44,933 nt of DNA from Solirubrobacteraceae bacterium (GTDB lineage Bacteria; Actinomycetota; Thermoleophilia; Solirubrobacterales; Solirubrobacteraceae): positions 1 to 44,933 of the forward strand of contig JAWVGK010000391.1 in the NCBI GenBank assembly GCA_033855155.1, read 5' to 3'. Position 1 is the stretch's first letter; each line of letters starts with the position of its first letter. The notes below the pieces were generated by a model that saw only the letters and a list, made by a program, of their open reading frames with translations, ran no database searches and had not been told where the DNA came from. Positions 25,847-44,676 of the stretch are shown here, piece after piece. The translations under genes were made by a program, and so were the position numbers.

Positions 25847-25877
25847 GCTCCTCCATACGCCAAGCGCCCAGGGCGGC

Positions 25878-29101: not shown

Positions 29102-29103
29102 AG

Positions 29104-29529
29104 CTAGGCGTTGTAGACGCGACCCGCGCGGTGGCTCTGGATCGCGAGGTCAACCGCGCCAAAGAGGGGGCTGGGAAGAGCGTCGAACCGGTACCAATCC
29201 CAATTCTCCACGCGGTCAGGCTCCGTGATACGCGGACTGCCGTCAAAGTCGGTGCACACGAACTCGACATCGACGTAATGCTTGCCGTAGCCAAGGAGGT
29301 TGCTGACACATAAGAACTTGAGCTCGCCCGCGGCAATCCCGGTCTCCTCCAGCACTTCACGACGGGCTGCTTCTTCGAGCGTCTCGCCAAACTCGACGTG
29401 TCCGCCGCACCAGCCGTAGGTAGACACCCCGTGAGCCCCTCGCCGCTTTCCGAGGAGCACTAGTCCAGCCGAGTCCAGCAACATCACGCCTACACCAACC
29501 TTTGGGCGTTCGCCTTCTGCTGTCTTCAT
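29104..29529 (-). CDS. Nudix hydrolase
   Basis: Nudix box GGHVEFGETLEEAARREVLEETG at 29338-29406. The stop lies 2 nt before the next gene's start. Confidence 0.9.
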   Translation of the reverse strand: MKTAEGERPKVGVGVMLLDSAGLVLLGKRRGAHGVSTYGWCGGHVEFGETLEEAARREVLEETGIAAGELKFLCVSNLLGYGKHYVDVEFVCTDFDGSPRITEPDRVENWDWYRFDALPSPLFGAVDLAIQSHRAGRVYNA

Positions 29530-29553
29530 GTGGTCGTCCCTTGCTCGTTAGCG

Positions 29554-30525
29554 CTACCAGACTGACGCGTCGGCGGGAGAGCCCAAGTCAACGCGGTCGA
29601 GCCACCAGCGCAGCTCTGCAGCAGCCACCCGGTCGCCATACGCCGTGGGCTCATCTGCCGTAGCGTAGCCCGTGTTGTATTCCATGTACACGTCGGACTG
29701 CCGATATACCGTCACATCGTCCATGGCTCCGATGCCGTAGCGCACCAACCAGAGTGGCGAATTAGGAAGGTCTCTTCCCGCCTCATCCAGCAGCTGCCGA
29801 ACCGTGCGTGCCGTGACGTCCCGGTCTACCTCATGACCTATCAGGCGGGCTAGGGTGGCCGCCTCCACGATGATCACATCGACCCGTCGAATAATGATCA
29901 AAAGCTCAGCGTAGGTGATGAACCGGTCGAGGTCGTGGGGCACGAGGTCAATGCACACGAGACCGCCGCCGTCGTTAGTCACAGTGATCGCAGTGTCGAC
30001 GGCGCCGCTTGATGACGACGTGAGCAGCGAGTAACCGTCTACGACCAACAGGTCTGACGCCGACAGTTGGGACCGATAAGCGAGTACGTCCCTCGGAGCC
30101 AGGAAATGGCTCGGGGCGGGCTGACTTGAGATGAGGACACGCGTCCCTTGCGACGAACCTGCCGACGGAGCGTCGCGAACGATGAGCACGACTCCGTTCG
30201 GCACATCAGGAATCTGGGTCAGGAGTGGTGTGACGCCGAGATCATGGAAATGGGCTTGTACGACCGACGAGTAGGCATCGCACCCGACAGCGGCGAGCAC
30301 GTTGACGGCAGCAAAGTGCTCCACTGCGTAGCGGGCGAAGTTGGCAGCCGTGCCGGCTATCGAAAGTGCGATCGGCGCGAACTCGAAGTGGTCTGTGCTG
30401 ACATCAGCAAAGCGAGTCGCAAGGCGGGATCGGACGTCGATACGCACGTCTCCCAACACGGTGACGGTATAAGCTCGTGGCTGCCTTTCCGTGGTAGCAA
30501 GGAGGTGAGTGGGCGAGGTGAGCAT
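29554..30525 (-). CDS. PfkB/ribokinase-family sugar or nucleoside kinase (divergent)
   Basis: VTVLGDVRIDV, IAGTAANFARYA (compare GGKGANQA), and C-terminal DEPTAYGDRVAAA (compare the DTTGAGD anion-hole/catalytic Asp block). There is no clear RBS at the ATG, so the start is uncertain. Confidence 0.7.
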   Translation of the reverse strand: MLTSPTHLLATTERQPRAYTVTVLGDVRIDVRSRLATRFADVSTDHFEFAPIALSIAGTAANFARYAVEHFAAVNVLAAVGCDAYSSVVQAHFHDLGVTPLLTQIPDVPNGVVLIVRDAPSAGSSQGTRVLISSQPAPSHFLAPRDVLAYRSQLSASDLLVVDGYSLLTSSSSGAVDTAITVTNDGGGLVCIDLVPHDLDRFITYAELLIIIRRVDVIIVEAATLARLIGHEVDRDVTARTVRQLLDEAGRDLPNSPLWLVRYGIGAMDDVTVYRQSDVYMEYNTGYATADEPTAYGDRVAAAELRWWLDRVDLGSPADASVW

Positions 30526-30898
30526 GGCACGGGAGGCTCGATCTGCGTCGCTAGACGCGGGCGCAGCTGGCAGCGACTGGCGAAGGATCGCCGCCCTTTA
30601 TATCGTGTTTTGACGCTGCGCCCATATCATTCGGCCTTGGGAATACGCGCTGACCCATAGTGCTCTCCGGCCAAGCTACGACCAATCTCGATGCCGAAGA
30701 TCACGCACATCGCGCGTATGCTCGAGCCAGTCGGTGCCAAGCTCGGCAACGACGACGAGCGTGAAAGGATCGCGGCGCTGAGGACGTCCCCCTCTGAAGA
30801 GAGCCGCAGGGTGGCTTCAGCGTCACGAGTTCCCGACGACCAGTCCAGAGCAGTAGACGCCGGGCACGTGCTTCCCGGAGCACCAGCCCCAGCGAGGT

Positions 30899-33238
30899 AT
30901 GGGAGCGCTCGTCTGCCGCTCGCCGCGCTGTCACCGAGTCCGGGGCACTGTCAACGTGTATAGCGCACCGTCGACGAGTCTCGCCGATGACGATTGGTCG
31001 CGCTATGACTCGTGGAACGCAGCGATTGCTGAGGAGTTCTTCGGGGGCCGATGGGGTGGCCGGCCGGTGTATCTCGACCTGGAGGACGACGTCCTCGAGC
31101 GCGTCACGCGGACGGCCCAGGCGACCGGCCCCGATGAAGCGCCCGATCTGATCGCCGCCGTTCGTCCCACGCTACGACTGGGCGAGCATGGGTCGCTGTT
31201 CGGCGCACATGCCGCGAGGCTCAGGCGCTGGCGAATCCAGAACCGGCAGGGACCGCCGCCGGTGCTAGGCGTCCTCGCGCTGCTGTCACTCGTCGCCGAG
31301 CAGATGCACACCGACGCGAAGTTCTCGGCGTCGAACTACTACGGGCGCTTCGTACAGCTCCTCGGTGGCGACACCGCCGACGAGCCACTTCGTCAGAAGG
31401 TGGTTCGCGGGTTCGCCGATCAATCGCACATCCTCTGGCGTGCCCTCAACGAATGGCTGTCGGAGGATCCCGCCGTTCGCGGGATCCCAACCGCATACGC
31501 TTTCGACTTCCGAGTTCACGTGGGCGTACCGATGTCGCAGGCCTTGGTGCGCGAGCCAGACCGACGGCGCCTTCAGGAGCTGTTTCTCGATGCTCGCTTG
31601 CGCCCTGGCGAGCGGTTGAGCCACAGCGACATGTTGAGACTGCTCGGTCAGTGGATCCCTGCCTCCTCCGTGAGCCGGACTCTCAAGGTCCTATGCCTCC
31701 AGCCCGAGGTGCTCGAGCGAGTCGCCGAGGTCGCATGCGTCGAGCTTGAGGCGTGGGGCGGGCAGGTCGACGTCGCATCCCCGGTTGCCAGATCAGAGCT
31801 CGCGCTCATCGCTCATCTGCGCGCCGTGCCGAGGCGGCGACTGGACCTGTCACTTGCGGCCAAGCTCCCGCTTGGGACGCACGCCGACGAGCTCGTGCTG
31901 TCTGATGATAGTGGCCCCGCAGCCATCCACGCTCTGGAACACGCCGACGGGCGACTGGAGCTCGACCCCCCGGATGAGGCCGGATGGCGCGCGGTGCGAA
32001 ACGCTCGAGATATCTCGATGCCGGACCTGCTGCTCGCGACGATGCACTTGTCCACCGTTACGGGCGCGGGGATCAGGAGGATTCCACGGCGGCTCATCCT
32101 CCTGGAACGTGACGAGACGATGCTTCGCTACGTCGAGGTCCCGCGAGCCCGGCTGGGCAACGAGTATCTGCTGCTCGCGATGGATGCCCTGCAAGGCGAG
32201 CTTGCGGCGGCGCTGGAGGAGGCCGCCCGTCCCGGGTATCGAGCGATTCGGCCCAAGTTCCTCCGGGGTTTACCGGAAGGGTGGATTGCGTACCTCGGTG
32301 TAGAGCTCATCGGGATCACCAGCAGCGATCGAGCAGACCTTGCGTCGCTCATCCCGGTCGCGTGGTCGCAGGTCAGCTTCTCTGGTGGCCTGAAGCTGCC
32401 TGGCCGCGCCAGCTGGCACCGGGACGATCCGCCGTCGCTGAACGCGACGTCGTTCGCAGGGGAGCCGGTTGATGCGGTGATCCATGCAGAGGCGGTCGAC
32501 GCGAGTGCAGAAGACGACGCCACCGATGAGACCCTGCTTCTTGGGCTCGTCGATGGCGCGGATGTCTTCGATCTGTCTTCCCTCGGCTTGGACAACGGCA
32601 GCTACCGGGGCGCGCTTGTGACCGCCGGCGACGCGAGCGTGATCGGGTCGGCGCCGTTGCGCCTTTCGTCGGCCTCGGAATCGGACGGTTCGGCAGCGAT
32701 GGGGGCCGGCACGCCCTTGGACAAGCCCGAGCTCGCACTTTTCGGAAGTTGGGGATCCGGTCTGACCCGTGGCGCCGATTGGCCGGAGACCGCGCCCGTC
32801 GATACAGCGCCAGGTTCCCTCCCGGCGAGGGGTCTGGTGTCACTCGCCCAACGAACGGTGGACGAGGAGCAGGACGACGAGCCTCCGCCAATTGCCCCGT
32901 CGCCGCAGCCGGCGAGCGTCGCGAACTGCCTGGAGACTGGCGCCCACTACTTCGTGCTTGACTCCCATGCCGGTCGCCGAGGTCTCGCCGACATGTTCGG
33001 CGGCGACTGCCGCTACTGCGGCTTGGAGAAGTTCTTCCCCGCTCGGCCGCGTCGGGGCAAGAAGGGTCAACGACGCGGAAGCGTCGGTGGACGCCGCGCC
33101 GCCCAGCTCCACGATGTCGTCCGAAGCCTTCAGAACGTCCCTCGGCGCAACGATCCCCAACGCATGGATCCAAACGTCCTGCTCGACGCGCTCTCGCTCA
33201 TTGGCGGCTCCGATTGGGTGTGCTGCAAAGGATGGTAG
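30899..33238 (+). CDS. Large hypothetical protein with no domain recognisable by eye; first gene of the helicase-DUF1998 module
   Basis: Track ORF of 779 aa with protein-like composition throughout. A late Cys cluster reads CLETGAHYFVLDSHAGRRGLADMFGGDCRYCG. An alternative in-frame GTG start is at 30956. Confidence 0.6.
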   Translation: MGALVCRSPRCHRVRGTVNVYSAPSTSLADDDWSRYDSWNAAIAEEFFGGRWGGRPVYLDLEDDVLERVTRTAQATGPDEAPDLIAAVRPTLRLGEHGSLFGAHAARLRRWRIQNRQGPPPVLGVLALLSLVAEQMHTDAKFSASNYYGRFVQLLGGDTADEPLRQKVVRGFADQSHILWRALNEWLSEDPAVRGIPTAYAFDFRVHVGVPMSQALVREPDRRRLQELFLDARLRPGERLSHSDMLRLLGQWIPASSVSRTLKVLCLQPEVLERVAEVACVELEAWGGQVDVASPVARSELALIAHLRAVPRRRLDLSLAAKLPLGTHADELVLSDDSGPAAIHALEHADGRLELDPPDEAGWRAVRNARDISMPDLLLATMHLSTVTGAGIRRIPRRLILLERDETMLRYVEVPRARLGNEYLLLAMDALQGELAAALEEAARPGYRAIRPKFLRGLPEGWIAYLGVELIGITSSDRADLASLIPVAWSQVSFSGGLKLPGRASWHRDDPPSLNATSFAGEPVDAVIHAEAVDASAEDDATDETLLLGLVDGADVFDLSSLGLDNGSYRGALVTAGDASVIGSAPLRLSSASESDGSAAMGAGTPLDKPELALFGSWGSGLTRGADWPETAPVDTAPGSLPARGLVSLAQRTVDEEQDDEPPPIAPSPQPASVANCLETGAHYFVLDSHAGRRGLADMFGGDCRYCGLEKFFPARPRRGKKGQRRGSVGGRRAAQLHDVVRSLQNVPRRNDPQRMDPNVLLDALSLIGGSDWVCCKGW

Positions 33239-34059
33239 GTCAGCACGACGATCGGCCTTGGGGCGCACTCGAGTGCGCCCGCACGCTCTCATGCCTCGGT
33301 CACCTGGACCTCAACATCGACCCACGGACCGTGCGTCCGACTCGGTGGTCGATCGCGCCAGCGACCATCGTGGTAACCGAGTCAGGTTCGTTCCTGGCCG
33401 GCTTCCGCTCCGACCGGCTGATCGCCGCGCTCACCGACCACGCAGTAGATCGAGGGCTACAGGTGACGCGAACGCCGGCGCCGAGTTCGCCGGATCGGAT
33501 CTCGTTCACCCCGCTCGGCGGCGCTGATGCACTCCAACTCGCAGACGCGATCCGAACCGACAGCAACCTCGCGGTTGGTGTCTGCGTCGATCCCTCGAAG
33601 CACCTCCTGGAGTGGTTGCCGTCGCTTGAGAAGCTTCGGATGACGCTCCCGTTGGACGACTTCGTGATCCATGAAGGACTGGAGCGATTCGATGTGACTA
33701 CCGGCCGTTGGGAGCCGGCGGGTACCTCTCGGGCCGAGGGTGCCTACCGCACCGCTCGCCTGCCGCGTCGCCACTGGCATCGGTCCAGCGGCGAGACGCG
33801 ACGTAGCCTTGACCCACTGTCGAAATGGCTAGCCGCCGCGGATGTCCAACCGCTGCTCGCGTACGACCCCGAGACCCAGCAGCTCGCCTGCCACGTCGGC
33901 TGTCCTCTACCTGCCCTCCACGAGCGCGCCGCTGTCCTCGCTACCGGGTGGACACCGTCTCACGTCGGCTCACACATGATCTACGGAGGCATCAATGACC
34001 GGCTCGCCGCGGCGTTGGCCCGTAAGCTACGTGTTCCGGTGATCCATGGCTCAGCCTGA
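33232..34059 (+). CDS. Hypothetical protein; second gene of the helicase-DUF1998 module
   Basis: Track ORF 33214..34059. The ATG at 33232 overlaps the upstream stop (ATGGTAG), and the 3' end overlaps the helicase start by 14 nt. No recognisable domain. Confidence 0.55.
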   Translation: MVGQHDDRPWGALECARTLSCLGHLDLNIDPRTVRPTRWSIAPATIVVTESGSFLAGFRSDRLIAALTDHAVDRGLQVTRTPAPSSPDRISFTPLGGADALQLADAIRTDSNLAVGVCVDPSKHLLEWLPSLEKLRMTLPLDDFVIHEGLERFDVTTGRWEPAGTSRAEGAYRTARLPRRHWHRSSGETRRSLDPLSKWLAAADVQPLLAYDPETQQLACHVGCPLPALHERAAVLATGWTPSHVGSHMIYGGINDRLAAALARKLRVPVIHGSA

Positions 34060-37000
34060 CCCCCTGCAGCTGCAGCAGCAGCTGTCGGCGGCATACCTGC
34101 GGTACTACGACACGGCCTTCCGCCTGCGCGATCCACAGCTCCGAATCGAGCGGCGGAGGCTGCTGGAGCGTCCGGGCACGGTGTTCACGCAGCCTCTGAT
34201 CGAGCCCGTGATCCCTTACCCCAGCAGCGTCTCCGTGCGGGATGCGTGCGCTGCGGCAGGCCTGCGGCCGGAGATCGCACCAACGCTGTCGCACATGCTC
34301 TTCCAGCAGGGCGAGGGCTTCGGGCTGCGCGAGCATCAAGCTGAAGCGCTGAGGATCTCGCTGTCCCCGCCCGACACCGACCGGCGCCACGTCGTCGTCA
34401 CATCAGGCACCGGCTCGGGCAAGACCGAGTCGTTCCTGCTTCCGATCTTCGCGCGTCTGCTCTCGGAGGCGCTTGACGAGGGAGCCGAGCCAGCGCTGCG
34501 TCGCTGGTGGGATCGCGACGCCCCCGCAGGACGATGGCGGAGCGCGAGACCGGACGGAGGCCGCCCGCCCGCGATGCGAGCCATGATCCTGTACCCAACC
34601 AACGCGCTGGTCGAGGACCAGATCTCCCGGTTGCGGCGCGCCATCTCACTGGCTCCGCGCCAGGGCGGCGGACCTGCGCTGTACTTCGGTCGTTATACGG
34701 GGGCCACGATCGGGGGCGGGGAGCTCCCGACGACGATGAGCGACCCTCGTGTCCGGGAAGTCGCTCTGCAGCTCCGACTGATGGAGCGAGAGCGCAACGG
34801 GCTGGCCGGGGTCGACATCGAGGTAGCAGGGCAGTTCGCCGAACCCAGGGAGGGCGAACTGATCGTCCGATGGGACATGATCGTGACCCCGCCAGACGTG
34901 CTCGTGACGAACTACTCGATGCTCAACGTGATGTTGCTGCGCGATCGCGAGTCATCGCTCTTCGGTGCAACGCGCGACTGGCTCGCCGGGGATCCCAAGC
35001 GCGTCTTCACGCTCGTCGTCGACGAGTTGCACGGATACCGAGGGACGCAAGGCAGCGAGGTGGCGCTCGTCGTGCGCAACCTCCTACGACGCCTTGGGCT
35101 CTCCGGAGACAGCCCGCAGCTTCGGTGCATCGGAACGAGCGCATCGCTCGACGGCGAGGAGGGACTGGAGTTCCTCGAGCAGTTCTTCGGCGCACCGCGA
35201 GACAGCTTCCACGTCACCGCCGGTACACCAGAGCAGATCCCGGACGTCGACTTCACAGACCTCCAGCTCGATCGAGTGCCCCGGGACGGAGCGCCTCGCC
35301 TTGACCAGGTGGTTGCCGCCGCATGTCGCGACGCCGATGGCATCCGGGCACGAACGATCTCGCAAGTCCAGCGTCGACTCTTTGGGGACGGCGATCACAA
35401 CCGCGAGTCGATGAGGCGAGTGCTCTCCCTCGTGGCTGAGCAGGGTGACAAATCGGGCCTGATCTCATTTCGATCGCACCACTTCGTCCGGATGATCCGC
35501 GGTTTTTGGGCGTGCTCCGATCCGGACTGCGAAGTCGCGGATCGGTCGGATCACCAGCCTAGGTCCGTCGGGCGCCTGTATTCGATCCCCACCGCCCGCT
35601 GCGAGTGCGGGGCACGGGTGCTCGAGCTCCTGTACTGCAACCAGTGTGGTGAGGTCTCGCTTGGGGGCTTCGTCGCGGTCCCCGACAGCGACGAGCCCCA
35701 AGACGGCGAGGGCTGGTACCTCAGTGCGCTTCCGAGCGTGCCGCGCGTCGCCGAGCAACTCGTGTTCCGCCGTGGTTGGGGTGAGTACATGTGGTATTGG
35801 CCCGGGGAGTGTCCAACTGACGTCAACCCGTGGCGACACTCGCTCGACGAAGGAGCGCTTCAGCTCCGGTTCGGGCCGGCAGAGCTCGATCCACGCACAG
35901 GCGTGCTCTCGCCGGCCCCGCGCCCACTCGCAACGGGGACGATGATGACGCTATCTCGCCGCCTCGCCGACCTTGCGCCGCGACGTGTGCCGGCCCTCCC
36001 CGAGCGGTGTCCGCGGTGCGACGCCGCGGGCTTCAACCGCGACCCACGCACCTTCTTCAGAGGGCTCGTCAGATCGCCGATCCGCGCACACACCACCGGC
36101 GTTGCACGTGTGAACCAGGTGTTGCTCGACAGGGTGGTCCGAAACGTCGCCGAGCGTCCCCAGGATGGTCGCACCATCGTGTTCACGGACAGCCGTGACG
36201 ACGCTGCCGGGACGGCTGCTGGGGTCGAGACCAACCACTTCAGGGACCTCATCCGGCAGGTGGTGACGCAAGAGCTTGCCGTGGCCGACAGCCCTGCGAC
36301 GATCATGCGCCGCGCTGCGCATGGCCAGGATCTGACATCCGATCAGCAGAGCCTGCTTCCGCTCTACAAAGGTGACGCTCCAGACGTCTGGAGCGCGATG
36401 CGGCTCGATGCTCGTGGACTAGCCGAACCCGACGATCTGTCGCTCATCGCGGCGTACATCGGCCAGCACGGGGGCGAGTCGAGACGCCTGCCCTGGGAGG
36501 TGCTGCGGCAGCGGGTGGAGCGCCGACTCGTGAGCCTGGGCGTCAACCCAGCGGGGTCAGCACCGTCCGCCGCGACGTTCGGCCCACACCCATGGTGGCT
36601 CCTTCATGCATCCCCTCATGGCCAGTGGACGCAGCTAGCGGCAGAGATCCGTGCCGACGGGCAAGCGGAGGCCCGGACGCGACTGGACAACCATCTCGCC
36701 GACGCGCTGTTCAACCGCGGAGGGCGGGACTTCGAATCGGTCGGCCTCGGTTGGTTTGAGCCCGCCCGCACGATCACCGGCCAACTGCCGTTACCGACCG
36801 GATCAGACTCGGAGACCATCCGCTCGACGATCCGTCTTCTTGCCCTCTCGGGCCGTTACCCAGGCACACGCTGGGACGCCACGGGACCCGGTCAGGCGCT
36901 CAGGCGATACCTCAAGGCGGTTGGTGCGCGTCACGACGTAGACCCAAAGACACTCGAGCAGTTGCTCGAGGATCTGCTCGCCGACGCACGCGTCACACGG

Positions 37001-39364
37001 GACTGGCAGCTGCGACTGGACGCGCTCGACATCGTCCTAGCGGCGCCGGGTCAGCATTGCTGGCGCTGCCCGCGCTGCTCGAGGATCCACTTGCACCCGA
37101 GTGCCGGCGCATGCACAACCAGCGGATGCAACGCTCAGCAGCTCATTGAGGGTCCGATCGACGCGGAGGTCGAGGACTACTACCAATGGCTCGCGCGCGA
37201 GCCACCGCGCCGGCTGCATGTTGAGGAGCTCACGGGCCAGACCAAACCGCTCAGCGAACAGCGCGCCCGCCAGCGACGCTTCAAGGGGGCCCTACTACCA
37301 GCGCCAGCCGAGTGCGAGCTCACCCAGTCGATCGATGTCCTGTCGGTCACCACCACGATGGAAGTCGGCGTCGACATCGGGACCTTGCGCGCCGTCGTGA
37401 TGGCCAACATGCCGCCGCAGCGGTTCAACTACCAGCAGCGTGTGGGACGCGCCGGCCGCAAGGACCAGCCATGGTCCTTCAGCCTCACGCTCTGCCGCGA
37501 TCGCGCCCACGACGACTACTTCTTCAACAACCCCGAGCTGATCACCGGCGACCGTCCTGCGCAGCCGTACCTGGATCTCGGTCGGCCCCAGATCGTCCGA
37601 CGCGTCGTCGCAGCGGAAGCCCTTCGGCGAGCCTTTGGGGAGCTTCCCGAGGACCTGCGAAGCGCTGCGCGCGTACGAAGCGTCCACGGAGACTTCGGTC
37701 GGACGGCCGACTGGAAAGGCTCGTTTCGCGCGCCGGTCTCACGCTGGCTCGTCGAGAGCGACGAGATTCCCGCGATCGTCGACGCATTCACGGCGTACAC
37801 GCCGCTCTCGAGCAGCGAAGTCGCGACGATCGAACCGTGGCTACGCGGCGAGCTCGTGTCTGAGGTCGACGACGTGGTCGCGAGCAGCCATTTCGGACAA
37901 CCTGAGCTGAGCGAGCGTCTGGCAAATGCCGGGCTGCTACCGATGTTCGGCTTCCCGACGCGAGTCCGAAGCCTCTATCGACGGGCGCCGCGAAGTCGCG
38001 ACGACGAAGCAGAGAGCACCGTGTCCGATCGCCGCCTCGACATGGCCATCTCGAGCTTCGCGCCGGGCGCCGAGGTCCTGCGCGACAAGCAGCTGCATCT
38101 GTGCGTGGGATTTGCGGCGTACGAGTTCGCTCGCGGACGTCCCACCCCCCGCGACCCCCTCGGTACCCCGATCACCCTCGTTCGCTGCCAGGAGTGCGAC
38201 GCAATCGATGTCGGTGCGGTTGACGCCGCCGAGCCTTGCCCCGCGTGCGGTGGGAAGCGAACGCTCATGCCGATGTACGAGCCTCGCGGCTTTCGCACCG
38301 ACTTCCGCCCGCGTGACTTCGACGATCAAGCGGAGCGCGGCCCATCAGGCAGCCTTCCACAGATCGCCTGGACGCCGGACGACGCCGAGCGCCAGCCAGT
38401 CCGGGGCGTCACGGTCGACAGGCGTAGCGGGACTCCGGTGTACGTCGTCAACGACAACGCCGGTGATCTCTACGAGATGCGTCGCTTCGACGGGACGGTC
38501 GTCGTCACTTCGCCGGAGCTCTACTCGGACACCCCTTCGTTACCAGTCGCGGTCTCGGAGCGCCCTCCGGATCTGGTTGGGGCCATCGGAGCGGTCAAGC
38601 CCACTGACGTCATGATCATCGAGCTCGATCGACTTCGTCGCGGCCAGGAGCGTGGCGCTCTCGCGGTGGACGCGCACCACGGAGGGTCACTTCCCGCGCT
38701 GTGGTCGTTCGCGGAGCTGCTGCGCATCTCCAGCGCGCTCGAGCTTGACGTGGATCCTCGCGAGCTCGTGGTGGGCTTACAGCCCTATGCGCTCAGCGAC
38801 GGCAGAGGTTCCCGTCGCATCTTCGTCGCCGACCAGCTCGAGAACGGCGCGGGCTACTCGTACCGCCTGGGGCGCGCTGAGGTGCTGGGCCACGTCCTTG
38901 ACCGCATCGTCGATCAGATCGGTCCCCGCTTCGAGGAGCACCCGCACGCTGCTGAGTGCGACAGCGCGTGTCCGCAATGCCTGCGCAACTACGAGAACCG
39001 TCGCCTGCATCCGTTGCTTGACTGGCGCCTGGGGCTCGACGTCGCTGAGCTCGCAGCCGACCGTCCTCTGCGGGTCGGGCGCTGGCTCGCCGAGTCAGAG
39101 CGCATCGCGCGGCATTTCGCCAAAGCGTTCGAACTGACATCGTTCATGGCAGGCTCGCTGGGCGCGATCGAAGACGACTACACGGGCCGCGTGGCGATTC
39201 TCGGCCACCCACTCTGGCCGGCGGAGGCCGAGGGTTTGGTCGATGAGCAGCGCGCTGCGAGGAGCGCGCTTGCGCCGGGCGTGACGGTGCTGATGTCCGA
39301 CCTCTATACGGCTGTGCGATGGCCCGAGCGGATCGCCACCTGGCTGGCACGCCCTGCGACGTGA
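34046..39364 (+). CDS. 1772-aa DEAD/DEAH-box helicase fused to a C-terminal DUF1998 (MrfA-type Zn-binding) domain; Druantia DruE-like or DISARM DrmA+DrmB-like
   Basis: Walker A SGTGSGKTES (34406-34426), TNALVEDQ, DELH (35021-35032), FTDSRDDAA, TTTMEVGVDIG, and QQRVGRAGRKDQ. The DUF1998 signature ECDSACPQCLRNYENRRLH is at 38957-39010. Additional Cys clusters lie at 35513-35647, 37058-37129 and 38186-38248. Confidence 0.9.
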   Translation: MAQPDPLQLQQQLSAAYLRYYDTAFRLRDPQLRIERRRLLERPGTVFTQPLIEPVIPYPSSVSVRDACAAAGLRPEIAPTLSHMLFQQGEGFGLREHQAEALRISLSPPDTDRRHVVVTSGTGSGKTESFLLPIFARLLSEALDEGAEPALRRWWDRDAPAGRWRSARPDGGRPPAMRAMILYPTNALVEDQISRLRRAISLAPRQGGGPALYFGRYTGATIGGGELPTTMSDPRVREVALQLRLMERERNGLAGVDIEVAGQFAEPREGELIVRWDMIVTPPDVLVTNYSMLNVMLLRDRESSLFGATRDWLAGDPKRVFTLVVDELHGYRGTQGSEVALVVRNLLRRLGLSGDSPQLRCIGTSASLDGEEGLEFLEQFFGAPRDSFHVTAGTPEQIPDVDFTDLQLDRVPRDGAPRLDQVVAAACRDADGIRARTISQVQRRLFGDGDHNRESMRRVLSLVAEQGDKSGLISFRSHHFVRMIRGFWACSDPDCEVADRSDHQPRSVGRLYSIPTARCECGARVLELLYCNQCGEVSLGGFVAVPDSDEPQDGEGWYLSALPSVPRVAEQLVFRRGWGEYMWYWPGECPTDVNPWRHSLDEGALQLRFGPAELDPRTGVLSPAPRPLATGTMMTLSRRLADLAPRRVPALPERCPRCDAAGFNRDPRTFFRGLVRSPIRAHTTGVARVNQVLLDRVVRNVAERPQDGRTIVFTDSRDDAAGTAAGVETNHFRDLIRQVVTQELAVADSPATIMRRAAHGQDLTSDQQSLLPLYKGDAPDVWSAMRLDARGLAEPDDLSLIAAYIGQHGGESRRLPWEVLRQRVERRLVSLGVNPAGSAPSAATFGPHPWWLLHASPHGQWTQLAAEIRADGQAEARTRLDNHLADALFNRGGRDFESVGLGWFEPARTITGQLPLPTGSDSETIRSTIRLLALSGRYPGTRWDATGPGQALRRYLKAVGARHDVDPKTLEQLLEDLLADARVTRDWQLRLDALDIVLAAPGQHCWRCPRCSRIHLHPSAGACTTSGCNAQQLIEGPIDAEVEDYYQWLAREPPRRLHVEELTGQTKPLSEQRARQRRFKGALLPAPAECELTQSIDVLSVTTTMEVGVDIGTLRAVVMANMPPQRFNYQQRVGRAGRKDQPWSFSLTLCRDRAHDDYFFNNPELITGDRPAQPYLDLGRPQIVRRVVAAEALRRAFGELPEDLRSAARVRSVHGDFGRTADWKGSFRAPVSRWLVESDEIPAIVDAFTAYTPLSSSEVATIEPWLRGELVSEVDDVVASSHFGQPELSERLANAGLLPMFGFPTRVRSLYRRAPRSRDDEAESTVSDRRLDMAISSFAPGAEVLRDKQLHLCVGFAAYEFARGRPTPRDPLGTPITLVRCQECDAIDVGAVDAAEPCPACGGKRTLMPMYEPRGFRTDFRPRDFDDQAERGPSGSLPQIAWTPDDAERQPVRGVTVDRRSGTPVYVVNDNAGDLYEMRRFDGTVVVTSPELYSDTPSLPVAVSERPPDLVGAIGAVKPTDVMIIELDRLRRGQERGALAVDAHHGGSLPALWSFAELLRISSALELDVDPRELVVGLQPYALSDGRGSRRIFVADQLENGAGYSYRLGRAEVLGHVLDRIVDQIGPRFEEHPHAAECDSACPQCLRNYENRRLHPLLDWRLGLDVAELAADRPLRVGRWLAESERIARHFAKAFELTSFMAGSLGAIEDDYTGRVAILGHPLWPAEAEGLVDEQRAARSALAPGVTVLMSDLYTAVRWPERIATWLARPAT

Positions 39365-39481: not shown

Positions 39482-40702
39482 TCATGCCGCCTTCGCGCGT
39501 CGGCGTCGCGGCGCCATCGACCGCGGTGCTGCAGAGACGCGCCGCAGGGGCAGGGGAGCGACGGGCGCGCCTTCGATCGACGCCTGCCGAGCCTGGAAAG
39601 CGTGTCCGACCGCGAGCGCGACATAACGGGCAAGACGGGGCGGCACGGCGTTGCCGATCTGCCGGAACTGGGCATTTCGAGACCCCTTCCACTCCCAGCC
39701 CTCGGGGAAGCTCTGGAGTTCGGCAGCCTCCTCGACAGTAATGCGCCGCAGCGGATGCGGACGCTTGAGGTGCGGCTGCCCCGCGGCGAGTCGGGTGTGG
39801 TGGCGGCAGACCCACGGAGTGACGAAGACGTCTGGGTGGGCAAGCCGGGCCGCGAGCTCCTTGCAATCAACGATCGGGGTGCCGTTGCCGCCCATCGACG
39901 CTGGCAACGTGCGTGCAACCGCGTCGAGTTCGAGGGGACGGCCAGAGCCGTTGAAGAGCAGACTCCCCTTGTACGGGCTCGGCCGCATCACGGCCTTCTT
40001 GGCCAGCACTACCCGGGCCGTGCAGCTTGAGTCGTTCCCCACCTCGCCGAAGGCCGGTAGTCGCTGTAGCGCCTCGAGCACAGTCAGCGGGCGAGCCGCC
40101 GTCATGGGCACCGGGAACAGCGGAGGACCGTCGCGCACTCCGACCAGGAACATGCGCTCGCGGGCTTGCGGGACCGTGTAGCTCGCCGCATTCAGGACCG
40201 CCGACCCTACGGTGTAGCCGAGTTGCGTGGCCCGCGCGATCAGCCCGTCGTACACGGGCTTCCACCGTGCGCTGGTCGCGAAGGCCTTCACGTTCTCCAT
40301 GCAGAACACGGCTGGCTGGTACGCGCGCACCGCGTCCATGAACGCGTGTATGTGCTGTGAACGGGGATCCTGCGGGTCCATCAGCCCGATGACTGAGAAG
40401 CCCTGGCACGGTGGGCCGCCGATGATGACGTCCGGATTGAACTTGCCGGGGCGCGGGAGCTTCCTCAGCGCGGCAGGGAGGTCGCCGAGGACGATGTGAT
40501 CACCGATGTTCGCCGCATACGTGTCGACTGCGGTCTGATTCGCTTCAACAGCGTAGGAGATCTGGAAGCCCGCGTCCATGAAGCCGCGGTCGAGCCCTCC
40601 CGCGCCCGAGTACAGCGAAAGTACCTGCAGTCCCTCGCCCGGACGTTCTCCCAACCACGGCCCGCACAGAGATTCCCAGTCGGGGGTCGGAACATCGGAC
40701 AC
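39482..40702 (-). CDS. dcm: DNA (cytosine-5)-methyltransferase
   Basis: Motif I LSLYSGAGGLDRGF, motif IV GGPPCQGFS (40394-40420), motif VI ENV, and motif X QIGNAVPPRLA. I chose the GTG at 40700-40702, 50 nt after the vsr stop. The track ORF extends to 40837 and would overlap vsr. Confidence 0.9.
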   Translation of the reverse strand: MSDVPTPDWESLCGPWLGERPGEGLQVLSLYSGAGGLDRGFMDAGFQISYAVEANQTAVDTYAANIGDHIVLGDLPAALRKLPRPGKFNPDVIIGGPPCQGFSVIGLMDPQDPRSQHIHAFMDAVRAYQPAVFCMENVKAFATSARWKPVYDGLIARATQLGYTVGSAVLNAASYTVPQARERMFLVGVRDGPPLFPVPMTAARPLTVLEALQRLPAFGEVGNDSSCTARVVLAKKAVMRPSPYKGSLLFNGSGRPLELDAVARTLPASMGGNGTPIVDCKELAARLAHPDVFVTPWVCRHHTRLAAGQPHLKRPHPLRRITVEEAAELQSFPEGWEWKGSRNAQFRQIGNAVPPRLARYVALAVGHAFQARQASIEGAPVAPLPLRRVSAAPRSMAPRRRRAKAA

Positions 40703-40752
40703 TGCTCGATTGTCGCCCGCGACGCGGACGCCATCTATGGCTGCGCGCGACA

Positions 40753-41190
40753 CTAGCACCGCTCGGCGACGACTCGGGCGACGCGCTCCGCGACCGTCGC
40801 GGGATCCTCGTGCTCCCAAGCGCGCACCACGAGCCACCCTCGCGATGAGAGCTGGGCATTGGTGTCTGCGTCACGGGCGACGTTGTTGGCGAGCTTCGGC
40901 GACCAGTACGCAGCGTTCGACGCCGGCTGCGTCCCATGCTCCGGGCATGCGTGCCAGAAGCACCCATCGACGTACACCGCGACGCGTGACCGCGTGAAGA
41001 CCAGATCCGGCCGCGTCCAGCGGCGACCGTCTAGCTTGATGGTGTAGCGCGTGCGGAACCGCAAGCCCCGGCGGTGGACCAGCGAACGGAGGGCCAACTC
41101 AGGCGTCGTGTCGCGGCTGCGGTTCCCGCGCATGACGCTCGACGTCGCCGTGGAGTTCGCAACAGGCCAGTTCGGGTCGCCCGGCTTCAT
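40753..41190 (-). CDS. vsr: Very-short-patch repair endonuclease
   Basis: SSVMRGNRSRDTTPELALRSLVHRRGLRFR, RPDLVFTRSRVAVYVDGCFWHACPEH, and NVARDADTNAQLSSRGWLVVRAWEHE. Confidence 0.9.
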   Translation of the reverse strand: MKPGDPNWPVANSTATSSVMRGNRSRDTTPELALRSLVHRRGLRFRTRYTIKLDGRRWTRPDLVFTRSRVAVYVDGCFWHACPEHGTQPASNAAYWSPKLANNVARDADTNAQLSSRGWLVVRAWEHEDPATVAERVARVVAERC

Positions 41191-41287: not shown

Positions 41288-42490
41288 TCAGGAGACGATC
41301 GCGTCGACCTCGCCGCGCCAGCGGTCGTAGGACAGGAGCCAGTCGTCGTTGGCAAGCCCGCCGTCCTCACCGAGTCGTCGCACCGCTCCATCCCAAGCGC
41401 CGCGCTGCTTGAGCTGTTTTGGTCCCACCAAGAGCAGCGCCGTCTTGGGAATGCGTGAGCGGCGAGCGATCACTCGATCGACGATGTAACGGTGGAGGAC
41501 GTCCGCCGCACTGAAAGCAGCTGCTACCTCGGCCGACGATGGGCGGTGGCCGCGATGAACCACGCGACCCCGTAGGTACGCCAGGTCATTCGACCAAGGT
41601 CCGACGGGTGGACGAGTGCGGTCCCAGGATCCACCGAGCAGCGCTGAGAAGTGACGCTTGATCCTGGCAGCGAGATCCAGACGCAGGGCTGGCGCGGCAT
41701 CGGATGCGCCGTCGCCGCGCTCCCAGAGGCTAAGGGCGAACACGGCGTCCAACATGACCTCGACCGCGATCGACAGGCGCAGGATCGCGTCTTCGGGATG
41801 CGTCGTGATCCGGGCCTCCTCCGCAGCCAGAAGCCACTCCATCCACCGCATGAAGGGATGGCGTGCCTGCATGGCCCCGAGAGCTGTCTCGACGCCCGCA
41901 ATGGCCTCCTCGTCAAGTTCGTCGGGCACAGGTCGATCACGGAGTTGGTTGTTCTCCAGCACGATGATCTGCGGCAGCCCCAACGTCTGCCCGGTGACCG
42001 CGTCGCGGCGGACGCACGGCACAATCGGCCATACGTCTCCCGGAGCCACCGGCGTCTGGGCTGCATCGCTCGCGATGATGGTCGCGCGGTCGGCATCACG
42101 CAGAGCGTCCAGTCCACGGGCAAGGGCGACCTCAAGATGTTGCTCGTCGTCGTGCGGCAGCGGCATCGTCAACTCGACGACGGTCTCGCGATGCTCGTCG
42201 GGACTGAACAGAGTTGCACCGGGTGGCCTCGCCGCTGTGGCAGCTCCGGTGCGCTCGTGCATCACCGCGTGGACGAGATCGAACGCCTCATCATCACGGC
42301 GCGCCGCAACCGCCCGCTGATGGAAGATGATCTGCACCCACCAGCGATCGGGAGGTCCGATCATCGGGGAATCGGTGCGGAGCGCGAACGGCGGCACCTC
42401 GATCTCAGACGCGCCGAGGACGGTCATCGCGGTGCCGTCCGGCCACGCAAGGGCACGAGGCAAGAGGACGAAGCACGTCAGGTGGACCAT
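41288..42490 (-). CDS. Hypothetical protein with a C-terminal HEPN-like helical region (Rx4H)
   Basis: Track ORF 41288..42550. The motif RGRVVH lies at 41555-41572, in the context LAYLRGRVVHRGHRPSSAEVAAAFSAADVL. It is preceded by a helix, EDAILRLSIAVEVMLDAVFAL. The N-terminal ~250 aa are unrecognised. The start is uncertain: GTG 42550, ATG 42490 or ATG 42427. Confidence 0.55.
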   Translation of the reverse strand: MVHLTCFVLLPRALAWPDGTAMTVLGASEIEVPPFALRTDSPMIGPPDRWWVQIIFHQRAVAARRDDEAFDLVHAVMHERTGAATAARPPGATLFSPDEHRETVVELTMPLPHDDEQHLEVALARGLDALRDADRATIIASDAAQTPVAPGDVWPIVPCVRRDAVTGQTLGLPQIIVLENNQLRDRPVPDELDEEAIAGVETALGAMQARHPFMRWMEWLLAAEEARITTHPEDAILRLSIAVEVMLDAVFALSLWERGDGASDAAPALRLDLAARIKRHFSALLGGSWDRTRPPVGPWSNDLAYLRGRVVHRGHRPSSAEVAAAFSAADVLHRYIVDRVIARRSRIPKTALLLVGPKQLKQRGAWDGAVRRLGEDGGLANDDWLLSYDRWRGEVDAIVS

Positions 42491-42586
42491 CCGACGCCTA
42501 CTTTGGCGGCGAGGCCGTGGCGCGCGACCGACCGGCGCCGAGCGGTTCACCCAAGGCCGGTCGGTGTGAGCGCGTCGTATCCGGAT

Positions 42587-43474
42587 TCACGGCACGACGC
42601 GCCGCTGCCAGCGCGCAAATCCGTCGTGGATGAAGCTCTCCTCCGCCAGCAACGGCTGCCACGGGTCGCCGATGTCCTCAAGCAGGCTCAGGAGGCGTAC
42701 GCGCTCCACGATGAGATCGGTGTTCGAGCGCAGCTCGTCCCAGTGCTCGTAGCCGGGCTCCAGTGCGTGTGGGATCGCCAGCGCTGCGCTGAACACGCCC
42801 TCGCGAACGTCGAGCAGCCTTCCCCATTCCCCCGGCGCGATCTCACGCGCCTTGAGGATCAGGTCGGTATGCGTGCGCTTGAGCGTGCATTGGCACAGCA
42901 CCACGGGGTGAGCCGCCCGGCGGTCGCCGAAGGGTCGCCAAGACGCCACGTCGAGCCCATGATCGTTGCGACTCGGCCGCGCGTTCGTCTCGTGCGTACC
43001 GATATGCATCATCCGGCCCAGCGAACGGATTCGTGCCCGCACCCCAGGCTCGTCGATGTCAGCGAAGACAACGGACTCCCCGGCGACGAATGCCCCCATG
43101 GCGGGGGCGGCAATGCGCTCGAACGCTCGGCCGGGCTGGAACCCGACCTGGTTGCTTCGGAAGCTTGGTGCAACGGAGCACAGGGCGAGGAACTTGTACA
43201 GCAGCTCTACCCCAGGCTCGACTGCTCGGCGATGAAGCCCGCGGAGACCGGTCGTGAACGGGTACAGCGCACCGGCGCGAACCGACCGGCGCTGGACCTC
43301 GGCGAGGATGTCGCTGACCGCTGTCTCGACTTGGTCGAGGTCCATGTCCGGATCGGCAAGCGCGACGACCCGCTGGATCTCGCTGTGCCGCAGCAGCGGC
43401 CGCGACTGCGCAAGGCACGCGAGCTCGAACCAGTCCGTGGCGATAGCGAGATCGCTCAGCATGGGACCGCTCAC
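42587..43474 (-). CDS. Hypothetical protein with an Mrr-like PD-(D/E)xK nuclease core
   Basis: GRAFERIAAPAMGAFVAGESVVFAD followed by NDHGLDVASWRPFGDRRAAHPVVLCQCTLK (42878-42964). This matches the Mrr pattern G..FE...(x)..D.G.D(V/I)....(x)..V.(V/L)Q(C/A)K. The start overlaps the upstream stop by 4 nt. Confidence 0.6.
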   Translation of the reverse strand: MSGPMLSDLAIATDWFELACLAQSRPLLRHSEIQRVVALADPDMDLDQVETAVSDILAEVQRRSVRAGALYPFTTGLRGLHRRAVEPGVELLYKFLALCSVAPSFRSNQVGFQPGRAFERIAAPAMGAFVAGESVVFADIDEPGVRARIRSLGRMMHIGTHETNARPSRNDHGLDVASWRPFGDRRAAHPVVLCQCTLKRTHTDLILKAREIAPGEWGRLLDVREGVFSAALAIPHALEPGYEHWDELRSNTDLIVERVRLLSLLEDIGDPWQPLLAEESFIHDGFARWQRRVVP

Positions 43475-44676
43475 GGCGCGATTTCCTCCTCGCCCTCATC
43501 GCCGTCGTCGCCGAAGTCCACGTCGTCGCCCTCATCCTCGTCCACGAGCTCGAACTCCTGACCTCCCTCGGCGATGGCGTCCTCGGCAGCGACGACGCCG
43601 GCGTCGAGCTGGTCCAGTTGCTCCCGGATCGCCGCGATGGCCATCTGCACGGCTTCATCGTCGGCATGCTCCGCGTAGTCGGGGGCCGCTTGCTGTAGGC
43701 CCGTCAGTGCCTTTGCGAGCCCCTTGAGAACGAAGTCACGTCGTCCGCCGGCCGCCTCGAACGCGCGCTCGAGGTCGCGCTCGGTCTCGAGAATGCGAAC
43801 ACCGTCGTCCGTCTGGAGGGCGACGGACAGATCGTCGATCCTGCGCGTGTCCGTGAACAACCGGTCGGGTCCCCCGGGTTCGCCGTACAGAAACGACAGG
43901 AGCTTGGCCATCTGCTCGCTTGGCGCGTCATATGCCGTGTCTGATCCGGGCTGCATCACTGTGGGAGAGCGCGCCTCGATGTACTCGCGCACGCCTCTGG
44001 CGTTCATCGCGCGCTCCCAGCGGCCGAACTCCGCCTGCGCCTCGACGATCCGCACGCCTGCTTCCTCGGCTTGCTTCAGAGCGAGCCAATCGCGCAGACG
44101 CCGCTGGATCCGTCGCGGGTTCTCCCCGACCAGCTCACTGACCTGCTCGAAGTCGCGAGTGGGATCCTCCTCGAGGAGCTTGACCACGAACGCGGACTTC
44201 TCGAACGCGTCCCACTTCAGGATGCCGACGATGTGGCGGTATCCGATGATCGGAGCCGCCGCCTTGCGGTCGGGCACCTCTTGACACGGGATGGTCGCGA
44301 GGCGGGCGACGCGTTCCGGGTGAGTCTGCAACTGGGCTGCCATTCGATCCCACTCGGCACCAGCATCGACGGCCTCTCGCAGTTCTGGGTCGAGCAGCAG
44401 CTTCAGTGCGACGAGTCTTCGGTTGCCCTCGGCGACGACGTAGGCGCCATCCTCCGGGAAGACGATCAGCGGCTCGGTGGCGAAGAAGCCGAACTCCACG
44501 ATCGATCGCCCGACCGGTTCGGGATCGAACCGGGCGAGCAGCGCCTCGACCATCGCCGGCTCGTCGAGCGGGCCGTCCTCGAGGGTGAACCGGTGAAGCC
44601 GGGGGTTCTCCGGGTCGAGGCGAAGATCCCCGAGCGCATGGTGGGTGATCGGCGTTTCTGCGAGCACATCAGTCAT
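43471..44676 (-). CDS. ParB/Srx N-terminal-domain protein with an acidic C-terminal tail
   Basis: LRLDPENPR and VVAEGNRRLVALKLL (GxxRxxA motif at 44407-44427). A central helical region follows, then the tail ELVDEDEGDDVDFGDDGDEGEEEIAP. A GGAGG RBS lies upstream of the ATG. Confidence 0.8.
   Translation of the reverse strand: MTDVLAETPITHHALGDLRLDPENPRLHRFTLEDGPLDEPAMVEALLARFDPEPVGRSIVEFGFFATEPLIVFPEDGAYVVAEGNRRLVALKLLLDPELREAVDAGAEWDRMAAQLQTHPERVARLATIPCQEVPDRKAAAPIIGYRHIVGILKWDAFEKSAFVVKLLEEDPTRDFEQVSELVGENPRRIQRRLRDWLALKQAEEAGVRIVEAQAEFGRWERAMNARGVREYIEARSPTVMQPGSDTAYDAPSEQMAKLLSFLYGEPGGPDRLFTDTRRIDDLSVALQTDDGVRILETERDLERAFEAAGGRRDFVLKGLAKALTGLQQAAPDYAEHADDEAVQMAIAAIREQLDQLDAGVVAAEDAIAEGGQEFELVDEDEGDDVDFGDDGDEGEEEIAP

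Follow-up and report, generated by a model that had tools for sequence, protein, structure and literature searches.

A ParB-like protein, an Mrr-like putative nuclease, and a DNA methyltransferase form a candidate restriction-modification-like cassette in a Solirubrobacteraceae contig and in P2-like phages

The window analyzed here is a 44,933-nt stretch of contig JAWVGK010000391.1 from a Solirubrobacteraceae bacterium (G+C content, ~70%; closest relative, a Solirubrobacteraceae metagenome-assembled genome [MAG]). It carries three co-directional genes, here called g1, g2, and g3, followed by genes for a very-short-patch repair endonuclease (vsr) and a C5 cytosine DNA methyltransferase (dcm). 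A preliminary description of the sequence took the three genes for an undescribed defense system made of a ParB/Srx-like sensor or clamp, an Mrr-like DNase, and a HEPN-like RNase, with vsr-dcm as a mere neighbor. The locus thus raises the question of which of these genes belong together and what they might do. Our survey of related loci showed that the conserved system consists of g1, g2, and a DNA methyltransferase, with Vsr, a Z1 helicase, and a protein of ~95 aa as optional components, and that g3 is a facultative, separable module. Judging from the sequence comparisons, g1-g2-(g3)-vsr-dcm is rather likely to be a member of a widespread, unnamed, restriction-modification-like defense cassette gated by a nucleoside triphosphate (NTP).

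Scanning one genome per species with a g1 profile yielded 184 relatives; 80 loci were retrieved, and six-frame translations of 79 of them were searched with hidden Markov models (HMMs), positions being taken relative to g1. In 72 of the 79 loci, g1 was followed by g2 within 500 nt, and two of the seven loci without g2 were contig ends. The g1-g2 loci span Actinomycetota, Chloroflexota, Bacteroidota, Planctomycetota, Acidobacteriota, Patescibacteria, Pseudomonadota, and an archaeal MAG. A DNA methyltransferase of some type was linked in 71/79 loci. This was a C5 enzyme within 6 kb of g1 in 67 loci and a D12-class N6 or N6_N4 methyltransferase directly beside g2 in four loci without a C5 enzyme. 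The C5 count was obtained with an HMM built on the neighbor cluster, the consensus of which contains motifs I, IV (PCQ), VI (ENV), VIII, and X (GNAV); a single-query tblastn search with dcm found 33/79. The window's own dcm also has all five motifs, with the same PCQ, ENV, and GNAV signatures (Pfam DNA_methylase, 3.9e-53). A partner of varying chemistry that is yet always a DNA methylase is a signature of self-protection. Since a methylase was present in 71/79 loci, the downstream vsr-dcm pair belongs to the system and is not the mere neighbor it was first taken for; the DNA methyltransferase is in fact the most constant partner of g1-g2. A vsr gene was found within 6 kb of g1 in 35 loci. Vsr repairs the T:G mismatches that deamination of 5-methylcytosine (5mC) leaves.

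The arrangement of these genes was variable. Homologs of g2 overlapped an upstream gene of ~390 aa and were accompanied by a C5 methylase and in some cases Vsr, in changing order and often with an adjoining integrase. In L003 and L006, a Vsr-Dcm fusion is followed by g1 and g2 and adjoins an integrase; the order is Dcm, g1, g2 in L007 and g1, g2, Dcm in Kup2HL77, L069, and L078-L081. A Z1-domain superfamily 2 (SF2) ATPase was encoded directly upstream of g1 in 32/79 loci (L049, 7915-9963; L055, 7125-9968; L013, 6081-8243; and 29 further loci). With filters off, no Z1 match was obtained in the six-frame translations of the close relatives or of the window, which extends 257 nt upstream of g1. 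The Z1 ATPases also match PADLOC Helicase_II and MzaC, and in some loci they are fused to, or encoded after, a Sigma70_r4/HNH_repeat protein that weakly matches MzaA. In 29/79 loci, g2 is followed by a conserved protein of ~95 aa (MSTGSTEPR...TKP...IVE..G..W...ES.G.TVT; for example, L055 11934-12218 and L021 11923-12207), which has no family match and is absent from the window. On the conjugative Neorhizobium plasmid NZ_CP147997.1 (L096), the gene order is cytosine methylase, DUF262 protein, Z1-domain protein, PD-(D/E)XK motif protein, g1 homolog, and two 'hypothetical' proteins; the first of these two has the position and size expected of g2, and the RefSeq name of the g1 homolog is likewise 'hypothetical protein'.

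Homologous cassettes also occur in phages. A search with the N-terminal half of g1 retrieved P2-like phages, and the Yersinia phages L-413C and HQ103 were among the g1 matches. In vB_EcoM-12474III, Wphi (orf98/orf96/mth), and Pseudomonas vB_PaeM-D14A, a ParB-like gene is followed by an overlapping 'hypothetical' gene and a convergent DNA cytosine methyltransferase gene. Alignment of the window families with the phage proteins by hhalign gave E=3e-55 and 100% probability for g1, and 2e-19, 9e-22, and 2e-24 with a probability of at least 99% for g2. A scan of IMG/VR with the g2 profile revealed at least two loci, and the full cassette was present in at least 36 complete E. coli genomes, for example in O145:H28 prophages. 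The cassette of vB_EcoM-12474III comes after the portal gene Q and so occupies the gpA-gpQ hotspot, which houses anti-phage systems in P2-like phages (Rousset 2022). Wphi, L-413C, and vB_PaeM-D14A likewise carry the cassette between gpA and gpQ. Table S5A of that study repeatedly gives 'DNA_methylase + hypothetical + ParBc' in the P2 hotspot, and ParB is not mentioned in its main text or its file of tested systems.

In the window, the stop codon of g1 and the GTG start codon of g2 overlap by 4 nt (cgGTGAgc), as the preliminary description had noted, and this translational overlap together with the downstream position of g2 in 72/79 loci argues for coupling of the two genes. A degenerate locus in L001 (9606-10834; also L002) retains the last ~100 residues of g1 as a 132-aa ORF, an intact g2, and an adjoining integrase, with no methylase nearby. 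Because g2 stays intact without a methylase in this remnant, it suggests that g2 needs g1 and is harmless without it. A probable 1-nt overlap (TAGTG) joins vsr and dcm, and g3 is located between the two overlapping pairs, with spacers of about 93 and 97 nt.

Sequence comparisons indicate that g1, g2, and g3 are real genes and not chance ORFs. g1 has 44 database homologs in addition to its 184 relatives in species-representative genomes, g2 has 23 database homologs, and g3 has nine close homologs and 1279 cluster representatives (E<=0.001). The three minus-strand ORFs proposed earlier were confirmed, and only the start of g3 (longest ORF, 41288-42550) was revised, to ATG 42493, because the upstream LTxFxLxPxAxAWPDG is conserved in homologs and the family HMM aligns across it. 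g1 has a GGAGG ribosome-binding site. All of the motifs quoted earlier are found in the translations (g1: LRLDPENPR, EGNRRLVA, and the D/E-rich tail; g2: GRAFE, NDHGLDV, and VVLCQCTLK; g3: LRGRVVHRGH, with RGRVVH at the position first given), and the family alignments showed that their residues are invariant or almost so. A promoter and terminator scan of the window found nothing exceeding shuffled expectation, and the window contains no tRNAs.

The assignment of g1 to the ParB fold held up, with no significant match to Pfam or NCBIfam. Residues 14-164 match 24 PADLOC PD-Lambda-5_A models (best, 3e-18), and a g1 family profile built from 21 members matches H. pylori ParB (4umk; E=0.0034) over a region spanning the GxRR patch (GERRLRA). 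The phage homologs (31% identity) carry the RefSeq name 'ParB N-terminal domain-containing protein'. Among 65 family members, D21, N24, P25, and R26 of the Box I-like motif and E83, G84, N85, R86, and R87 of the Box II-like motif are invariant, as are H148, W155, and G184; LDPENPR and EGNRR, the NTP-pocket boxes of the ParB/Srx superfamily, are invariant in the g1 family. Weak helix-turn-helix (HTH), ParB_N, and GmrSD_N matches were also obtained, the last of these marginal and in five of the 65 members. The HTH matches lie after the N-terminal domain, and the domain order is therefore ParB-like: NTP pocket, HTH, and helical C-terminal part. ParB-fold proteins bind CTP, ATP, or GTP. The invariant NTP-pocket residues and the ParB-like domain order suggest that g1 is an NTP-gated DNA sensor or clamp. 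Residues 75-357 match the PADLOC candidate PDC-M38A (1.9e-10), which resembles g1 past the ParB domain, so that part of the g1 family had been glimpsed earlier; no paper on PDC-M38 was found in the literature searched. The acidic tail of g1 was seen only in the clade without the Z1 helicase and might serve to mimic DNA or to autoinhibit the protein. One g1 homolog, P0056 (508 aa; 61% identity over 82% of the query), also has a Pfam DNA_methylase match, which points to a methylase-g1 fusion or to two genes merged in annotation.

The reading of g2 as an Mrr-type nuclease remains plausible, several weak lines of evidence being in agreement. g2 has no significant match of its own in Pfam, NCBIfam, or PADLOC 2.0.0. 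Its AlphaFold (AF2) model is confident (mean predicted local distance difference test [pLDDT], 87.7; predicted template modeling score [pTM], 0.88) and consists of a winged-helix-like N-terminal unit (helix-strand-helix-helix-strand-strand) and an alpha/beta core, the modeled secondary-structure order of which is compatible with the PD-(D/E)xK alpha-beta-beta-beta-alpha-beta core. The best Foldseek matches in the PDB were restriction nucleases and other PD-(D/E)xK proteins (MspJI, FokI, VC1899, NucS, PspGI, Ecl18kI, and McrC), and the best named matches among viral models were 'Restriction endonuclease' and 'Mrr-like domain' proteins (probability, 0.47-0.84). When the g2 family was aligned with a single Mrr sequence by hhalign, DGGxD paired with DGGID and QC with QCK. 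E17, R63, D171, D175, W179, Q195, K208, and R258 are invariant in the family. Several points weigh against this assignment, which is composed of weak signals. The Foldseek PDB matches have E>=0.013, Pfam Mrr_cat is matched weakly and by 8/62 family members (best E=0.0039), and the hhalign probability was low. In addition, the lysine of the canonical QxK motif is replaced by T or A throughout the family, and the invariant K208 sits 13 residues downstream. On fold- and motif-level evidence, g2 is likely to hold an Mrr-like nuclease core.

For g3, a model made on a 380-aa version of the protein was confident in the C-terminal half (pLDDT, 75-94) and had pLDDT<50 in the N-terminal half of ~190 residues. 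Foldseek matched the C-terminal half to the HEPN proteins 2hsb (probability 0.98; TM score 0.63 on the target) and 4nqf (0.90) and to Csm6, with E values for the HEPN matches of about 0.6-0.8. In 53 diverse relatives, E224, W269, R287, and H292 are invariant, and these take in the Rx4H motif. No significant match to Pfam or NCBIfam, including the HEPN families, or to PADLOC was obtained for g3, and one of the 53 relatives matched Pfam HEPN (0.0011). The invariant Rx4H motif and the structural matches make the HEPN-like assignment put forward earlier a likely one, although Pfam did not return it at significance.

Coordinates of the genes and motifs in the window (g1 to DruE) and of the phage cassettes (numbered within their own loci)
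Feature	Position	Strand	Description
g1	43471-44676	minus	401 aa; ParB/Srx-fold N-terminal domain, probable HTH, helical C-terminal region, acidic tail
g1 Box I-like LRLDPENPR	44599-44625	minus	
g1 Box II-like EGNRRLVA	44407-44430	minus	
g1 probable HTH	about residues 162-197		
g1 acidic tail	43474-43557	minus	roughly 28 residues, D/E-rich
g2	42587-43474	minus	295 aa; predicted winged-helix-like N-terminal domain and Mrr-like PD-(D/E)xK-type core
g2 DHGLD	42950-42964	minus	
g2 Q195	42890-42892	minus	
g2 K208	42851-42853	minus	
g3	41288-42493	minus	401 aa; unmodeled N-terminal half and C-terminal helical, putatively HEPN-like domain
g3 Rx4H motif RGRVVH	41555-41572	minus	
vsr	40753-41190	minus	very-short-patch repair endonuclease; Pfam Vsr 1.7e-17; PADLOC Vsr
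dcm	39482-40753	minus	C5 cytosine DNA methyltransferase; probable GTG start 40753; longest ORF reaches 40837
DruF	30899-33238	plus	6e-116
DruL/DruF-C-like ORF	33214-34059	plus	
DruE	34046-39364	plus	1565 bits
Phage cassette, L095	2974-6010		ParB-like + g2-like + C5 methylase
Phage cassette, L097	96-3266		ParB-like + g2-like + C5 methylase
Phage cassette, L098	3007-5974		ParB-like + g2-like + C5 methylase

We favor a restriction-modification-like reading because the methylase linkage is constant while the methylase type varies, because the genes stay together while their order varies, because a Z1 helicase resembling the CglI/NgoAVII N subunit occurs in relatives, because the cassette is found in the P2-phage defense hotspot and, in the window, next to Druantia genes, and because PD-lambda-5 offers a parallel. 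The methylase-free remnant with truncated g1 also fits this reading. In such a system, Dcm would methylate host DNA and thereby mark self, and Vsr would mend the mismatches arising from deaminated 5mC. g1 and g2 would form the restriction half, in which g1 would bind DNA as an NTP-gated sensor or clamp and license g2, which would cut DNA lacking the methyl mark. g3 would probably serve as a back-up RNase of the abortive-infection type, a part comparable to that of the HEPN domain in the ParB/HEPN protein of PD-lambda-5. We infer these functions from sequence, structure prediction, and gene neighborhood; this applies in particular to the unmethylated-DNA target, the NTP switch of g1, the dependence of g2 on g1, and the RNase activity of g3. 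More specifically, g1 might be a ParB-type clamp that loads with CTP, ATP, or GTP, slides or spreads, and licenses g2 only on DNA without cognate methylation; this version of the mechanism is tentative.

Other observations do not sit easily with restriction of unmethylated DNA by an NTP-gated g1. Mrr, GmrSD, and SspE are classically sensors of modified DNA. Because g1 has Asn at the position of Glu in the ParB GERR motif, its NTP hydrolysis may be slow or absent. Moreover, 8/79 loci show no methylase, several of the eight being truncated contigs, and in many Z1-type loci the methylase lies on the opposite strand, 1-5 kb away.

Among the alternatives, the one that survives best is a conventional Type II restriction-modification system, in which endonuclease activity would reside in g2 alone and g1 would regulate transcription in the manner of DndB or a C protein. 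g1 contains an HTH-like segment, DndB, a ParB-like protein, has been described as a regulator, and regulator genes are frequent in restriction-modification operons. However, the g1 proteins are 350-400 aa long with NTP-pocket residues that are invariant across phyla, and g1 is translationally coupled to g2, the pair being kept in those 72 loci whatever the promoter context. In the Z1-type loci, g1 lies between helicase and nuclease, and the truncated-g1 remnant with intact g2 and no methylase argues that g2 is inactive alone. We therefore regard a purely regulatory g1 as unlikely.

The preliminary description had envisaged an obligate unit of g1, g2, and g3, acting as sensor or clamp, DNase, and RNase independently of vsr-dcm. 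The three genes are adjacent and co-directional, and ParB, HEPN, and methylase components are known together from PD-lambda-5 and the MAE_28990 HEPN family. The same five-gene order (g1, g2, g3, vsr, dcm) also repeats in L005, L009, and L010. However, the only other loci in which g1-g2 occur together with g3 are L005, L009/L012, and L010; at 81-88% identity to the window, these represent the same element. In the 79 more distant g1-g2 loci, HMM searches of the six-frame translations with HMMER filters off detected g3 in none, and g3 homologs at 57-60% identity have no g1 or g2 nearby. The ~95-nt spacers flanking g3, set against the overlaps of g1/g2 and vsr/dcm, and the constancy of the methylase rather than of g3 also make an obligate trio quite unlikely. 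Since g3 is limited to near-identical g1-g2 relatives and has other partners elsewhere, it is a separable module inserted in the window's lineage and no part of a conserved three-gene unit. Genes of the g3 family were seen directly after a RecQ-like helicase (L011, 8279-11176; L092, 449-3455), ahead of a GmrSD_N protein (L094, 572-4105), and beside a GHKL ATPase (L093, 1745-3754). These settings suggest that g3 represents an independent family of HEPN-like defense genes.

Compared with the restriction-modification-like reading, the opposite polarity is very unlikely: g1-g2 would be a Type IV-like pair that, in the manner of GmrS/GmrD, SspE, or Mrr, attacks modified foreign DNA, and the methylase would not be a self-marker. 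The Mrr architecture of g2, a winged helix and an Mrr-like core, is what such a pair would have, and ParB-superfamily domains sense modified DNA in GmrSD and SspE; the five g1 relatives with weak GmrSD_N matches point the same way. In L042 (11042-12157), the small ~95-aa protein is fused to an AspBHI_N-like domain, and AspBHI_N is a 5mC-reader domain. Nevertheless, the near-constant link to a C5, N6, or N4 methyltransferase, often in one operon, is unexpected for Type IV, and a nuclease that depends on 5mC would be toxic to its own host when encoded next to an active Dcm, unless the two enzymes differed in specificity.

The setting of the locus as a defense island, noted earlier, was confirmed by adjacent Druantia DruF and DruE genes. 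The Druantia-like operon at 30899-39364 converges on dcm, and the DruE and DruF genes that define Druantia type II/IV are found there and not among g1-g3, none of which matched any Druantia model in PADLOC. DruF/DruE adjoin the g1-g2-vsr/dcm module not only in the window but also in L004, L023, and L036, four independent loci in all; in L036, vsr and DruF directly adjoin each other in the same orientation. These associations would fit g1-g2-vsr as accessory genes of a Druantia type II/IV-like system with dcm as its DruM. No second methylase was seen among the window genes scanned, and dcm scores 6.7e-59 against DruM models. However, among the best 25 of its 63 PADLOC matches, dcm scores equally well against generic Type II methylase models, and about 75 loci and all of the P2-phage cassettes have g1-g2-methylase without DruE. 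An accessory role in Druantia is accordingly highly improbable. One methylase may serve both modules, and a shared methylase would complement, not replace, the restriction-modification-like explanation. The region at 25000-31000, just upstream of the Druantia genes, has a G+C content of about 0.62, compared with about 0.70 elsewhere. Its ORFs include one for a molybdopterin-binding oxidoreductase-like protein (26897-29101) and one for a PfkB-family kinase (29554-30525), and the edge of an acquired island may lie here.

A plasmid or prophage partition module with g1 as a centromere-binding ParB, which the order of ParB N-terminal domain and HTH might suggest, was rejected, since neither the window nor the conserved neighborhood showed a gene of the ParA type next to g1 (parS/centromere repeats were not searched for), NCBIfam parB_part scored 11.9 bits against a cut-off of 58.45, and the constant neighbors are a nuclease-like protein and a methylase.

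If the restriction-modification-like reading is confirmed, a phylogenetically broad, unrecognized family would be added to the known systems. No Pfam, NCBIfam, or PADLOC family exists for g1 or g2, and the RefSeq name of g2 is 'hypothetical protein'; current annotation tools therefore miss the cassette, and the methylases in it are taken for orphans or for DruM. Should the clamp mechanism prove true, the cassette would represent a new mechanistic class of NTP-dependent restriction enzyme, in which a ParB switch replaces the helicase motor or, in the Z1 variants, joins it. The ParB NTP-switch fold would gain a role as nuclease gatekeeper, the clamp-gated family would extend from Actinomycetota of the soil to the defense hotspot of P2 phages in E. 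coli, and PD-lambda-5 and Z1/CglI-type systems would be linked in one modular scheme. Because P2-type prophages of E. coli, the classical phage Wphi among them, carry the cassette, it offers a tractable model.

The nearest named system is PD-lambda-5 of E. coli ECOR7, an experimentally validated two-gene defense system of a 'ParB/HEPN' protein and a methyltransferase (Vassallo et al. 2022). It gives broad phage defense, had to be studied in an mrr-deleted host, and was read by its authors as a compact prophage 'RM+Abi' (restriction-modification plus abortive infection) system (Vassallo et al. 2022). The window locus shares with it a g1-type ParB N-terminal domain and a DNA methyltransferase partner and also encodes the probably HEPN-like g3, and the E. 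coli relatives of g1-g2 are likewise prophage-borne. However, g1 matches only positions about 7-190 of the A models, which are 430-590 positions long, and whereas HEPN is fused to ParB in PD-lambda-5, the C-terminal region of g1 lacks Rx4H. The effector beside ParB in the window is a separate, Mrr-like g2 that matches no PADLOC model; g3 is separable and matches no PD-lambda-5 model, vsr is present, and the C5 methylase is separated from g1 by g2, g3, and vsr. The window locus is thus not a member of PD-lambda-5.

CglI and NgoAVII consist of M, R, and N proteins, and ATP hydrolysis and an R-N complex are biochemically required (Zaremba et al. 2014, PMC4267653). A C5 methyltransferase combined with a restriction enzyme that is split into polypeptides, and that there needs nucleotide hydrolysis, resembles the present cassette, as does the DEAD/Z1 protein of the N-subunit type upstream of g1 in the 32 Z1-type loci. 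In contrast, the CglI/NgoAVII R subunit combines a PLD nuclease with a B3-like domain, in place of a ParB-like and Mrr-like pair, and no Z1 gene is present in the window, with its 257 nt upstream of g1, or in its clade. Neither PLD nor B3 was matched by g1, g2, or g3 in Pfam or PADLOC. The earlier statement that the locus matches no named system holds insofar as it is a member of neither PD-lambda-5 nor CglI/NgoAVII, but it shares its ParB domain and methylase logic with the former, and its relatives carry the Z1 protein of the latter.

Wider resemblances were also apparent. GmrSD, SspE, and Menshen NsnA likewise have a ParB-superfamily NTPase domain followed by a DNA-binding domain and work with a nuclease effector in anti-phage defense; however, they belong to the DUF262 branch (DGxQR), with HNH or other effectors and sensing of modified DNA, whereas g1 has NPR and GNRR motifs and a methylase linkage that suggests the opposite polarity. 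Like Mrr, g2 is predicted to combine an N-terminal winged helix with a PD-(D/E)xK-type core that has D-x3-D and Q-containing strands (DGGIDG/QCK in Mrr; DHGLDV/QCT in g2), but it lacks a significant Pfam match, has the QxK lysine replaced, and occurs together with g1 and a methylase. HEPN modules embedded in restriction-modification operons have been proposed as back-up RNases (Anantharaman et al. 2013). The helical domain of g3, its invariant Rx4H, its structural matches, and its place in a restriction-modification-like operon fit this description, in contrast to the missing significant Pfam HEPN match and the ~190 N-terminal residues that were not modeled. Sequence searches against the PDB with single proteins and family profiles gave a marginal ParB match for g1 and nothing for g2 and g3, and literature searches found no paper naming or testing a g1-g2-methylase cassette. 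The kind of system, a restriction-modification-like one with an NTPase-assisted nuclease, is known, and its restriction components appear to be new.

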